Notes under the pieces: model-generated
What the model saw: only the letters and a program-made list of their open reading frames with translations
What the model was told of the DNA's origin: nothing
The model's database searches: none
Shown: one piece after another, positions 11,095 through 63,680 of the stretch
How positions within the stretch are numbered: the stretch's first letter is position 1
Layout of the letters: each line of letters opens with the position of its first letter
Program-made: the position numbers and the translations under genes
Assembly (NCBI GenBank): GCA_963422645.2
Contig: CAXXVO010000021.1
Coordinates: forward strand, 96,655-160,654
Length of the DNA stretch: 64,000 bases
Origin: Alphaproteobacteria bacterium
GTDB taxonomy: Bacteria > Pseudomonadota > Alphaproteobacteria > UBA828
Direction: 5' to 3'

Positions 11095-11169
11095 CAGACT
11101 TCCTGACCTCTGCTGATTTTAGGTGACACGAGCCGCGCGGATTCCGAGGCCCCGTCGATGTCGTAGACT
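11095..11169 (-). repeat. Orphan 75-bp right end of the unclassified IS, abutting a full copy
   Basis: Identical to 11170-11244 (CAGACTTCCTGACCTCTGC...TCGTAGACT). Confidence 0.9.
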
Positions 11170-13528
11170 CAGACTTCCTGACCTCTGCTGATTTTAGGTG
11201 ACACGAGCCGCGCGGATTCCGAGGCCCCGTCGATGTCGTAGACTATGCGCAGACGGGTGCCGGGGAAGACCGTTTCGGTGGCGTTCAGGTCGCTCAGAAC
11301 CGCATCGATCCAACGGTCGCAGGCGTCGTTTGCGAGGCCAAGAATGTGGACCCGCAGGAGGCCATTGCCAGGATCCGGCAGGATGTCGGCATCGGCGGTG
11401 AGCAGCGCTTGAAGCAGTTTCCGGGGATGGGGCTTGTGGCCCTGCGCCTGCATGACGGGAAGCATCATGCGGGTTTCGGCGCGGTAGGCGATCATCCGGA
11501 TGACGTCGAGGAGGAGGCGCTCGCGCGCGGGCAAGGCATCGAGCTGCTCGGCTTCGTCGAGGTCGCCGGCCCGGCAGTGCTTGGGCGTCTCCCTGCGGCT
11601 GGCCCTGACGATGTCGCGGACATCCTGGAGGTCCCTGACTTCCCTCCTGAGTTCCGCCGTCGGCTGCTTCTTCCGGGCCGTGTCGGCGATGCGGTTGCGC
11701 AGGCGGCCAAGCTGGCGGTCGAGGCGATGGATTGCCTTGTCATAGGCCCGCCGCAGCGGGTTGACGACCATGGCGGCGGGATCGAGAGGCTCGAGCTCGT
11801 GGGTCGGCAGGGCGTCGAGATTGAACTCGTCACGCATGTACTTGAAGAAGTTCTCCTGCGACCAGCGCGAGAACATGGCGCCCGCAACCTCAGCCATCGG
11901 CTTGTGCGGATCGGTGGTGATCAGCGGCACCTGACGGCCGTTGTCGAGCAGGCGGCGGATCTGGCGCACCCTGAAGCCGTTCGGCAACGTCACCGGCTTC
12001 TCAGCCAGCCGCATGGTGGCGCTGCCGTCCGCCGCCGGTCCGTGAATGGGAACGGTCATCGCGCCGAAGTCCTCGGCCGGCCAGTCCTCGCCCCTGAAGT
12101 TCTTGTGCCAGGTCAGGCAGGCGACGCCGCGCCTCGCCAGCCGGCGGAACAGATCCGGGCTCCAGCCCTCGCGGTCGAAGACCAGGGTGAGCGCCGGCTG
12201 GCCGGGATGCTCGGCGGTCAGGTCCGGCGCCCCGGCGCCAACGATCCCAAGCTCCTGCAGCGCCGGCACCACGTCGGCTTCGATGGCCGCGACCATCTTC
12301 GGGTCCAGCGGCTTGTGCAGACAGAGCAGCGGCTTGCCGCCCAGAGCGTTGATCCAGTAGCTGGCGCTCGCCGGCAGGCACAGCTTCTCGCGCGAGACGA
12401 AGTGCTTGGGCAAGCGCCCCTTGCGGCCGGAGTAGACCTTGACGTGCCCGTCGATGGCCAGCGTCGCCCAGAGCTCCGGCTCGTCGGCGCCTGCCAGCGC
12501 CTGGCAAGGGCGAGCTGCCACGCCCGCACGCCGGCCTCGTCGTCGGCGATGAGAGCGATCTTGCGGCGCAGCGTCTTGACCTCGGGGCAGCGATCGAGGC
12601 CGAGAATGGCGCCCCATTCGCCCGGCGCCTGGTAGCGCAGGCTCTCGGGGTTGCGCACCCGCGCCAAGGTCATGAAGGCCAGGAAGAGCAGGATCGTAGG
12701 CAAGCCGTAATAGCCCTTCGGCAGCAATGGCAGGAGACCGGTCTCGGAGAGAAGACCTTCCTTCAGCAGGGCCGGCAGGGCGGCGAGCACGCCGCCGAAG
12801 CGGACACCGCGGGCGGCGGCGGCGAACTGCGGTTCGACCGGCCCCGCCTGTCCACAACTGGCCAGAACCCGAGCCGGAACATCGCAAGTCGCACGCCCCA
12901 TCGGCGCCTGCCGGTCCCGCCGATCGCGCGCGCTGCGATCCGTTTGCGGCTGCGCTTCCAGCCCCGGCGCCGTCTCCGGCCCCGGGGCACCGGTACTCTC
13001 TTCATCGACACGGCCTTCAGGAGCCGCACCCGCGTCAGGCGGCGCAGCCAGCGCTGAGCGTCCGGGCTCCCCATCCGCCTCCGTGTTGCCGATCAGTCCC
13101 TGACGGCGCCACTTGTTGACCGATGGCGCTGACACGCCGAGAACCCGGGCCGCCGCAGAGCCGCTCAGGCCCGATGCCAGCAACGCCGTCGCCTTCTCCG
13201 CCAACTCCGGAGTGAACACCGACGGCCCGCGACCGCGCCGGGGCTTCATGAACCCCGCTTCGCCCTCGGCCAGGTAGCGCCGTCGTGCGCGCTGCACCGT
13301 CGCGCGCGAGACAGCGAAAGCGTCAGCCAGTTCCTGCGGCGAGACCGCGCTGATCGCCGCGAGGCGGCCGATCCGCAAGAGCATGGCCGTGCGGTCATCG
13401 GCGGCGTGGCTGTCAAAGGGAATGAGGTTGGAAAAGTAGGTGAAGGTGTCGTCCGAGATCAGGACGGCGAAGCAGCTGTTGCCGATCGAGACCGCCTCTG
13501 GAGGGCACATTGGGAGGGTACTGGGCAT
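11169..13528 (-). pseudogene. Large (about 785 aa) DDE transposase with two N-terminal HTH-like motifs, frameshifted near 12488
   Basis: Candidate catalytic motifs IDGH, FDREG, RWSQENFFKY; ORFs 12218-13528 and 11169-12887 join if 2 nt are removed. Confidence 0.8.
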
Positions 13529-13682
13529 GGTTGAGACCGTGCAATTGGTATCAAATTATAATATCAGACCTCGGGCGCGACACCCAGCGAAAAACCGCCT
13601 GAAACAACCGAAATGTATCAGAATTCAAGGAGTTCCCGGCACGCTGCCCAGAACAGCCAGCATCACGAGGTCAGGAAGTCTG
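11170..13682 (-). mobile_element. Unclassified 2.5-kb DDE insertion sequence, copy 1
   Basis: 16-bp perfect IR CAGACTTCCTGACCTC at both ends; near-identical to 61011-63522. Confidence 0.9.
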
Positions 13683-60786: not shown

Positions 60787-61010
60787 CTCACCTCGCCTCC
60801 CTGCATGTCCCGGATGGCCGAGACAGTTTCACGGCGTGCAATGCGGGTCAACCGCACGCGGCCGCGACCAGCGTTTCCTCTCCAGCCCGCCGGGCCGTCA
60901 GGCCCGAAGCGCGCGCCCGCTGCAACACCGGCCAGTTGGCAACTAACAGGGCTTGAGCCGCCGACAAGATTTGCGCTGCAGCCAATTTGGAGCACGAATC
61001 AGTACAGACT

Positions 61011-63522
61011 CAGACTTCCTGACCTCGTGATGCTGGCTGTTCTGGGCAGCGTGCCGGGAACTCCTTGAATTCTGATACATTTCGGTTGTTTCAGGCGGTT
61101 TTTCGCTGGGTGTCGCGCCCGAGGTCTGATATTATAATTTGATACCAATTGCACGGTCTCAACCATGCCCAGTACCCTCCCAATGTGCCCTCCAGAGGCG
61201 GTCTCGATCGGCAACAGCTGCTTCGCCGTCCTGATCTCGGACGACACCTTCACCTACTTTTCCAACCTCATTCCCTTTGACAGCCACGCCGCCGATGACC
61301 GCACGGCCATGCTCTTGCGGATCGGCCGCCTCGCGGCGATCAGCGCGGTCTCGCCGCAGGAACTGGCTGACGCTTTCGCTGTCTCGCGCGCGACGGTGCA
61401 GCGCGCACGACGGCGCTACCTGGCCGAGGGCGAAGCGGGGTTCATGAAGCCCCGGCGCGGTCGCGGGCCGTCGGTGTTCACTCCGGAGTTGGCGGAGAAG
61501 GCGACGGCGTTGCTGGCATCGGGCCTGAGCGGCTCTGCGGCGGCCCGGGTTCTCGGCGTGTCAGCGCCATCGGTCAACAAGTGGCGCCGTCAGGGACTGA
61601 TCGGCAACACGGAGGCGGATGGGGAGCCCGGACGCTCAGCGCTGGCTGCGCCGCCTGACGCGGGTGCGGCTCCTGAAGGCCGTGTCGATGAAGAGAGTAC
61701 CGGTGCCCCGGGGCCGGAGACGGCGCCGGGGCTGGAAGCGCAGCCGCAAACGGATCGCAGCGCGCGCGATCGGCGGGACCGGCAGGCGCCGATGGGGCGT
61801 GCGACTTGCGATGTTCCGGCTCGGGTTCTGGCCAGTTGTGGACAGGCGGGGCCGGTCGAACCGCAGTTCGCCGCCGCCGCCCGCGGTGTCCGCTTCGGCG
61901 GCGTGCTCGCCGCCCTGCCGGCCCTGCTGAAGGAAGGTCTTCTCTCCGAGACCGGTCTCCTGCCATTGCTGCCGAAGGGCTATTACGGCTTGCCTACGAT
62001 CCTGCTCTTCCTGGCCTTCATGACCTTGGCGCGGGTGCGCAACCCCGAGAGCCTGCGCTACCAGGCGCCGGGCGAATGGGGCGCCATTCTCGGCCTCGAT
62101 CGCTGCCCCGAGGTCAAGACGCTGCGCCGCAAGATCGCTCTCATCGCCGACGACGAGGCCGGCGTGCGGGCGTGGCAGCTCGCCCTTGCCAGGCGCTGGC
62201 AAGGCCGACGAGCCGGAGCTCTGGGCGACGCTGGCCATCGACGGGCACGTCAAGGTCTACTCCGGCCGCAAGGGGCGCTTGCCCAAGCACTTCGTCTCGC
62301 GCGAGAAGCTGTGCCTGCCGGCGAGCGCCAGCTACTGGATCAACGCTCTGGGCGGCAAGCCGCTGCTCTGTCTGCACAAGCCGCTGGACCCGAAGATGGT
62401 CGCGGCCATCGAAGCCGACGTGGTGCCGGCGCTGCAGGAGCTTGGGATCGTTGGCGCCGGGGCGCCGGACCTGACCGCCGAGCATCCCGGCCAGCCGGCG
62501 CTCACCCTGGTCTTCGACCGCGAGGGCTGGAGCCCGGATCTGTTCCGCCGGCTGGCGAGGCGCGGCGTCGCCTGCCTGACCTGGCACAAGAACTTCAGGG
62601 GCGAGGACTGGCCGGCCGAGGACTTCGGCGCGATGACCGTTCCCATTCACGGACCGGCGGCGGACGGCAGCGCCACCATGCGGCTGGCTGAGAAGCCGGT
62701 GACGTTGCCGAACGGCTTCAGGGTGCGCCAGATCCGCCGCCTGCTCGACAACGGCCGTCAGGTGCCGCTGATCACCACCGATCCGCACAAGCCGATGGCT
62801 GAGGTTGCGGGCGCCATGTTCTCGCGCTGGTCGCAGGAGAACTTCTTCAAGTACATGCGTGACGAGTTCAATCTCGACGCCCTGCCGACCCACGAGCTCG
62901 AGCCTCTCGATCCCGCCGCCATGGTCGTCAACCCGCTGCGGCGGGCCTATGACAAGGCAATCCATCGCCTCGACCGCCAGCTTGGCCGCCTGCGCAACCG
63001 CATCGCCGACACGGCCCGGAAGAAGCAGCCGACGGCGGAACTCAGGAGGGAAGTCAGGGACCTCCAGGATGTCCGCGACATCGTCAGGGCCAGCCGCAGG
63101 GAGACGCCCAAGCACTGCCGGGCCGGCGACCTCGACGAAGCCGAGCAGCTCGATGCCTTGCCCGCGCGCGAGCGCCTCCTCCTCGACGTCATCCGGATGA
63201 TCGCCTACCGCGCCGAAACCCGCATGATGCTTCCCGTCATGCAGGCGCAGGGCCACAAGCCCCATCCCCGGAAACTGCTTCAAGCGCTGCTCACCGCCGA
63301 TGCCGACATCCTGCCGGATCCTGGCAATGGCCTCCTGCGGGTCCACATTCTTGGCCTCGCAAACGACGCCTGCGACCGTTGGATCGATGCGGTTCTGAGC
63401 GACCTGAACGCCACCGAAACGGTCTTCCCCGGCACCCGTCTGCGCATAGTCTACGACATCGACGGGGCCTCGGAATCCGCGCGGCTCGTGTCACCTAAAA
63501 TCAGCAGAGGTCAGGAAGTCTG
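61011..63522 (+). mobile_element. Unclassified 2.5-kb DDE insertion sequence, copy 2, with 5-bp target duplication
   Basis: 16-bp IR CAGACTTCCTGACCTC; AGACT on both flanks (61006-61010 and 63523-63527). Confidence 0.92.
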
Positions 63523-63523
63523 A
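61165..63523 (+). pseudogene. Large DDE transposase, frameshifted near 62201
   Basis: ORFs 61165-62691 and 62186-63523 join into 785 aa if one A is removed from TGGCAAGGCC. Confidence 0.8.
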
Positions 63524-63680
63524 GACTCAACGCGCCAGCCCACATGCTACCCTCGCAGCCGATGATGATCTGAGCTAAGACAATACGGGATGCTATCGAC
63601 TACATACCCTTGGAGCCCACGGTGACAGTGTTCTTAATGACCTGCAATCAATGACCGACCGTGGTCCATCGTATCCGGCT

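Follow-up and report, generated by a model that had tools for sequence, protein, structure and literature searches.

Described elements close to the one considered here resemble it in the transposase, in the target or in the way in which translation ends. Transposases of the IS4 family carry the signature Y-(2)-R-(3)-E-(6)-K, and the duplications of the family are given as 8–13 bp in Table 1 of De Palmenaer et al. 2008 (PMC2266710). The same paper describes IS4-related 'emerging families' with duplications of ∼5 bp, among them the ISH3 family, archaeal only as then known, with elements of 1225–1500 bp, a transposase of ∼388 amino acids (aa) and CRGT ends. In IS870 and ISMt1 the transposase frame lacks a stop codon of its own, which is made by the CTAG target, and flank-dependent termination is known for IS1239, IS1547 and IS1110 (PMC13630536). 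Here we describe an insertion sequence (IS) at positions 61006–63527 of a 64,000-nucleotide stretch of an alphaproteobacterial genome (hereafter the window; contig CAXXVO010000021.1 of assembly GCA_963422645.2, positions 96,655 to 160,654). It is, with good confidence, a PF21804 element with a Tn5-like transposase of ∼785 aa and 5-bp A-R-N-Y-T targeting, in which the TGA at the right junction is a consequence of targeting sites that begin with A.

The element is 2512 bp long and spans 61011–63522, between two copies of the target duplication AGACT (61006–61010 and 63523–63527). Its inverted repeats are perfect over 16 bp. The left one (CAGACTTCCTGACCTC, 61011–61026, forward strand) is the same 16-mer that ends relatives at 78–88% protein identity, and the right one (63507–63522, reverse strand) also codes for the C-terminal residues of the transposase, the last five codons (R G Q E V) lying within it, and for the TG of the stop codon. 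The 16-mer is present five times in the window, as against 0.03 expected from shuffles, and variants of the form CAGAnnnCCTGAyCTC are found at the ends of relatives in other phyla. The transposase gene is on the forward strand and is broken. Its 5' part (61165–62199, residues 1–345 of the intact protein) encodes N-terminal beta strands, two helix-turn-helix (HTH) domains, a disordered linker and the start of the PF21804 region; its 3' part (62202–63520), in a shifted frame, encodes D359 (in IDGH), D451 (in FDREG), a beta insertion, E558 (in RWSQENFF), a helical hairpin and the C-terminal domain. The stop codon TGA occupies 63521–63523 on the forward strand: the element ends in its TG, and its A opens the target duplication. 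An earlier note, made from the sequence alone, had proposed a genuine IS with 16-bp perfect repeats and an AGACT duplication, and its ends, its further copies and its empty site all bear this out.

The insertion is absent from at least one public data set. A 2396-bp contig of run X1, which is filed under the same organism label as the window, joins 61005 to 63523 and skips 2517 bases, that is, the 2512 bp of the element plus 5 bp. The depth of this junction contig equals that of the flanks, and the empty site, for which the earlier note had suggested a search, holds a single AGACT. A contig of run X5 extends from the flank into the element and represents the filled site. The window insertion is thus polymorphic among public data sets, and hence recent. 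We also sought an empty site in 20 congeneric genomes, none of which provided one; conservation of the left flank stops ∼145 bp short of the insertion, and the right flank has a match in a single genome, at another place.

The genome to which the window belongs (G000; 5.9 Mb in 23 contigs) contains 190 segments of the element by genome-wide BLAST, 67 of them full-length copies. We compiled a target logo from 180 distinct flanks in this genome, 91 on the left and 89 on the right, with frameshifted copies, a ∼1.0-kb deletion derivative and end fragments included. Position 1 is A and position 5 is T in all 180. Position 2 is G in 80, A in 69, T in 25 and C in 6, and position 4 mirrors it with C in 85, T in 65, A in 27 and G in 3. 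Outside the 5-mer, position 6 is A in 93 of the 180 and position 7 is T in 75, in a genome with 16.4% A and 16.4% T. The target is a palindrome, t-[A-R-N-Y-T]-a, of which only A1 and T5 are invariant. The A(G/A)NCT or AGNCT near-palindrome that had been read from the window alone was right as to a strong near-palindromic preference but too narrow, as the logo is broader; the other flanks, collected as had been proposed, are not random, with A-N-N-N-T at 180 of 180. Perfect 5-bp duplications surround 34 of the 67 full copies, and for 12 of the 31 distinct duplicated sites, where the element had entered another repeat, the genome has an uninterrupted version with a single 5-mer at another place.

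Two further pieces of the element lie in the window, both on the reverse strand. A second full-length copy of 2513 bp (11170–13682), which belongs to the other frameshift class, is flanked by AGCCT and AGTCT and lacks a matching duplication. It abuts a 75-bp right-end remnant (11095–11169, element positions 2438–2512) of the copy whose AGTCT site it entered, and the outer flank of this remnant is AAACT. The four flanks listed in the earlier note (AGACT, AGTCT, AGCCT and AAACT) trace to the copy at 61011–63522, the second copy and the remnant.

Arrangements of this kind recur. The element carries an internal T-AGTCT-A, 75 bp from its right end (63448–63452, forward strand), which is near the consensus and is the element's own preferred target, and nested self-insertions are frequent (window 63448–63452 and 11095–11185). 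The nested blocks seen run from element positions 1–2442, through a full copy, to positions 2438–2512. The left flank TGCGCATAGTCT is found at 6 of the 67 full copies, and the uninterrupted internal AGTCT site is present 93 times in the genome. Several other repeats of ∼50–100 copies in G000 are also targets, their empty-site strings being found 54–103 times, and a broad expansion of ISs seems to be under way in the genome.

Most copies of the element cannot encode an intact transposase. The 785-aa protein reported from the window is real in that an intact frame of 785 or 786 aa is present in 10 of the 67 full copies, but the frame of the window copy itself is split into open reading frames at 61165–62691 and 62186–63523. 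The break is a single extra A at 62200–62201 (forward strand; CAAGG, where intact copies have CAGG), and contigs of all four public runs lack one letter at 62201. The two commonest length classes, of 2513 bp (26 of 67) and 2512 bp (19 of 67, including the window copy), are both frameshifted. The differences between length classes all fall in one hot spot, close to element position 1192 (window 62197–62203; variable columns 1193–1196), where 28 distinct full-length variants show four alleles with 0, +1, +2 or +3 bases, and the most frequent identical variant, represented by 16 copies, is frameshifted. In total 57 of the 67 full copies are frameshifted, many with duplications of their own; in the 2513-bp class these number 11 of 26 and are at distinct sites. 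From this we infer that defective copies have moved, most simply by means of transposase supplied in trans. Programmed frameshifting was considered for these copies and rejected, as the two classes need opposite shifts and inspection of the sequence reveals no slippery run at the site. A derivative of ∼1.0 kb, in which element positions 1–831 are joined to 2318–2512, occurs at nine places in G000, two of them partial (for example C8:517865–518887, C8:778611–779633 and C5:633898–634920), and is probably non-autonomous. With 67 full copies, most of them defective yet mobilised, and with one insertion or more that differs between public runs, the element is now shaping the genome of its host.

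Comparison with Pfam profiles and structure prediction, both proposed in the earlier note, place the transposase clearly. PF21804 (Transposase_29) matches with 338.8 bits against a cut-off of 27, residues 220–765 aligning with positions 10–560 of the 562 in the profile. The two HTH-like motifs recognised by eye correspond to matches of HTH_23 and HTH_29 at residues 52–108, the only region that found a counterpart in a profile search of PDB sequences. The motifs IDGH, FDREG and RWSQENFF, which hold D359, D451 and E558, were likewise well chosen: among 52 homologues D359, G360, D451, R452 and E684 are invariant, and H361 and the string R554-W-x-Q-E558-N-x-F-x-Y are at least 90% conserved. The AlphaFold (AF2) model has a mean per-residue confidence (pLDDT) of 89.9 and a predicted template modelling score (pTM) of 0.77, and it contains a helical hairpin at 590–646 that corresponds to what had been described as a coiled-coil insert. 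The best fold match is the Tn5 transposase (Foldseek E 2.7e-8), with a structural alignment of 314 residues (Z 18.6; root-mean-square deviation 4.0; model residues 245–703 on residues 5–448 of the chain). The second is piggyBac (Z 14.0, 325 residues aligned, 8% identity). The predicted layout begins with beta strands and two HTH domains, continues with an RNase-H core that is Tn5-like and contains a beta insertion, and ends in a helical C-terminal part.

A link to the IS4 family is also found by profile comparison. When the family profile was aligned by hhalign with an IS4-family transposase of 380 aa encoded in a congeneric genome (NF033592, 233 bits), the probability was 94.1% and E was 1.3e-7. 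FDREG is there aligned with FDKGY and RWSQENFFKYMR with RWQVELFFKWVK, which on this sequence comparison places D451 and E558 at the putative second and third triad positions. In the model D359 is on the first strand, where the first triad position would be, and the acidic triad is most likely D359, D451 and E558.

These properties can be combined in a simple scheme, for which the symmetry of the dimer, the cut-and-paste chemistry and the identity of the catalytic glutamate are inferred from Tn5 and IS4. A transposase dimer would bind the conserved 16-bp ends and excise the element. Each ...CTG-3' end would then be joined to a target A, one on each strand with a stagger of 5 bp, and repair of the stagger would give the 5-bp duplication. 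A need for A on both target strands would account together for A1, for T5 and for the palindromic A-R-N-Y-T. In the transposase frame the right end is GTC TG, and since A almost always follows it, a TGA forms at the junction. Most relatives have an internal stop just within the right repeat or at its inner edge; with this stop lost in the present lineage, translation ends at the junction TGA.

That the stop codon is completed by the target is borne out by relatives. The frame ends ...GAA GTC TG at 63522, and the A at 63523 completes TGA, just as had first been noticed. Congeneric genome G011 has copies at 81–88% protein identity with an identical 16-bp repeat, and in its full copy within a CATTT duplication the junction codon is TGC and the frame extends over more than 100 codons of flanking DNA. 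A further G011 copy has TGG at this point, and its frame is closed 24 codons on by the TGA of a nested end. These read-through copies show that the element has no stop of its own and that the target A supplies it. To survey the family more widely we used 80 loci from named records of metagenome-assembled genomes (MAGs), of which 47 have both ends located, 16 the right end only, and 17 no end. Of the 63 loci with a right end, 58 have A as the base that follows it. Most relatives in other phyla, however, keep their own stop upstream of the terminal TG, 10–60 nt inside the element; the distance to the TG is 24 nt in 12 loci and 15 nt in several, and other frames end at other points. Just inside the repeat, some relatives have the codon TGA in place of the AGA of this element. 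In this genus, and at L059, L060, L066, L116 and L129, no stop interrupts the frame short of the terminal TG. Locus L072 was withdrawn from the open-ended group, as a stop of its own closes its main frame 35 nt ahead of the terminal TG.

The earlier note took target choice and termination to be linked. One way in which this could be so is that the junction TGA is a selected coupling or quality-control device, such that correctly terminated, active transposase is produced only from canonical A-first sites; lineages would repeatedly have discarded the internal stop, tying transposase supply to correct integration. In a variant of this, termination inside the end would couple translation to end binding. 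The open-ended state does appear in separate branches of a maximum-likelihood tree of 59 rows, from which 20 rows without a located end and L041 were left out: the seven open-ended rows need at least five changes, and 17 of 500 shuffles do as well. IS870 and ISMt1 offer a similar arrangement (PMC13630536). If true, the junction TGA would be a selected device of a so far undescribed, phylum-spanning IS family. We nevertheless regard a selected device as unlikely. Most family members have kept their own stop, the last 13 residues are predicted to be disordered in the AlphaFold model, and the many frameshifted copies with their own duplications argue for a transposase that acts in trans, so that the flank of a given copy matters little. 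Our reading is instead that A-first targeting is old and family-wide, that TG|A has served as a standing back-up stop, and that several lineages have lost the internal stop without harm; the predicted disorder of the last 13 residues fits a neutral extension. Because most relatives share the target rule yet retain an internal stop, the target-supplied stop has most likely arisen as a by-product of A-first targeting once the internal one had been lost. Thus the observation is real and its central reading is confirmed, and the link between target and stop stands as a structural fact, whereas a functional link is unsupported, most relatives sharing the rule and keeping an internal stop.

A second alternative, also raised at the outset, is that the invariant T and A belong to the element, which would then have a 17-bp repeat, a 3-bp duplication and a TGA that is wholly element-encoded. 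T and A are indeed present at all 180 distinct flanks in this genome, the window copy even permits an 18-bp repeat, and the empty site in run X1 is compatible with both readings. Relatives with the identical 16-bp repeat speak against it. The G011 copy in a CATTT duplication is one case, and there the frame reads TGC and runs on. Three miniature elements of 263–274 bp in G011 (L053, L054 and L056) have the same 16-bp ends and duplications of AGTCT, CAATG and AACTT. Among the MAG loci with both ends located, 30 of 47 have a perfect 5-bp duplication, and of these 25 are A...T and five are otherwise (GGCCT, GGACT, ATACA, AGGGC and TACCT). Each of the seven duplications that are not A...T would need two chance matches under a 3-bp model, which makes the alternative very improbable; by the sequences of these relatives the duplication is 5 bp and the repeat 16 bp, and the 17-bp repeat can be set aside.

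At six ends (in L044, L045, L047, L048 and L049) a 15-base sequence adjoins the 16-bp repeat, and in L045 (G011:C3:2187860–2193403) it is on both ends, inverted. Either the repeat is extended in that variant, or these are insertions inside another repeat.

Finally, that the A...T flanks reflect selection after insertion for copies that gained a stop codon, and not a preference of the transposase, is hardly credible: the transposase frame does lack its own stop and copies in non-A sites give extended proteins, but daughter copies do not inherit flanks, the T at position 5, the R/Y bias at positions 2 and 4 and the outer T/A bias are symmetric and unrelated to a stop codon that concerns one end only and so cannot explain both A1 and T5, frameshifted copies, the 1-kb deletion derivative and end fragments obey the same rule, two of the three non-coding miniature elements in G011 have A...T duplications (the other being CAATG), and relatives with an internal stop also target A...T.

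Several points weigh against our account of a Tn5-like element with 5-bp targeting and a by-product stop. No IS-family model in NCBIfam matches the catalytic part of the transposase, the HTH region giving the only matches, which are weak; none of the NCBIfam models for IS4, IS701, IS1634, ISH3, IS5 and IS1380 is listed at E up to 1, and no DDE-transposase family in Pfam other than PF21804 matches. Kinship to IS4 is therefore remote, and the label 'unclassified' given in the earlier note is accurate as regards NCBIfam models of the catalytic part, although the protein is a clear member of PF21804 and a remote relative of IS4 and Tn5. The assignment of the catalytic glutamate is tentative, in that E684 (in AYRAET, protein P0001) is invariant in 52 of 52 homologues compared with at least 90% for E558; E684 is outside the R-x3-E motif that aligns with the catalytic glutamate of IS4. 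Within this genome the 16-bp/5-bp and 17-bp/3-bp readings predict the same filled and empty sequences, so that relatives decide between them. Matching duplications are missing from 33 of the 67 full copies, which we attribute to putative recombination between copies. The count of stop losses comes from a quick tree with support from the Shimodaira–Hasegawa-like approximate likelihood ratio test (SH-aLRT) only. More generally, our account draws on sequence and a structural model.

The family to which this element belongs is found in many phyla, mostly in uncultured bacteria. Among 8000 candidates scored, 2049 proteins match at E up to 1e-3, and all of those listed carry PF21804 and none is named; of cluster representatives, 3811 match at this cut-off and 503 at 1e-30 or below, and no names were present in the five homologue clusters looked at. 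PF21804 is encoded in 5 of 301 genomes of this class and in none of 14 control genomes, and a tblastn search with the transposase found no match among 72,556 plasmids. A Geobacteraceae MAG (L093) and a Chlorobiaceae MAG (L094), bins that belong to different phyla, have near-identical transposases (branch lengths 0.0076 and 0.0038), which reflects either recent transfer or mis-binning. In the literature we found no description of PF21804 elements, PF21804 being present in one paper and there in an accession list only; searches for ANNNT with 'insertion sequence' and for new IS families returned nothing, and those combining stop codon and target site returned nothing specific.

The known system that this element most resembles is Tn5/IS50 together with the IS4 family. 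It is the best structural match, and common to the two are a beta insertion that follows the second Asp and a helix of the form R-x3-E-x6-(K/R). By this likeness the element should move by cut and paste. The element differs in that the Tyr of the YREK signature is Met (M551, R554, E558, R565), leaving Y-(2)-R-(3)-E-(6)-K incomplete, in a duplication of 5 bp and not 8–13 bp, in a target that is a strict palindrome, and in a transposase of ∼785 aa, extended at its N-terminus by a beta/HTH-HTH part and with a long C-terminal part. NCBIfam models do not assign it to the IS4 family, and the kinship is seen only through hhalign (94.1%) and the fold. The piggyBac transposon, the second fold match, has a short palindromic target, TTAA, and a duplication of equal length; it is eukaryotic, with 8% identity and a different target and duplication length. 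The ISKra4 family (the ISAzba1 group) was considered on account of size and rejected, as there is no NCBIfam match to ISKra4 and the fold is Tn5-like; the ISAzba1 group is described as Mutator-related (PMC3942029).

In its target the element is like the ISH3 family, which has 5-bp A...T duplications, such flanks being found at 180 of 180 sites here and in 25 of the 30 duplications of relatives. It has CAGA ends and R554-x3-E558-x3-K562, and at 2512 bp with ends CAGAC it is outside the size and end sequences of that family. Alignment by hhalign of the family profile with the ISH3B transposase of pNRC100 gave a probability of 0.3%, a comparison with a single ISH3 sequence and of low sensitivity. 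The element is thus ISH3-like in target and fails membership of ISH3 on sequence, size and ends.

As regards termination, IS870 and ISMt1 differ from this element: there the whole TAG comes from the CTAG target, whereas here the target gives the last base only. Their transposases belong to another family, IS630. IS1239 of Streptococcus pyogenes also uses flanking DNA for termination, but the point at which translation stops differs among its copies, so that their C-termini vary, whereas here the stop is fixed at the junction by the target rule. The stop geometry is then a second, independent route to the outcome seen in IS870, and one that can be traced to loss of an internal stop. None of the element's striking features is without precedent: IS870 provides one for the stop codon, and ISH3 for A...T duplications of 5 bp. 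The novelty lies in describing a Tn5-like IS family that is widespread but uncharacterised and has a strict A-R-N-Y-T target and ends shared across phyla, and in the evidence that it is currently active in this genome. It provides a first working description, in terms of ends, duplication, target, likely catalytic residues, fold and distribution, of a family that Pfam lists only as 'Transposase protein', and the strict 5-bp palindromic target and cross-phylum ends make it a good system in which to ask how a Tn5-like enzyme reads its target.

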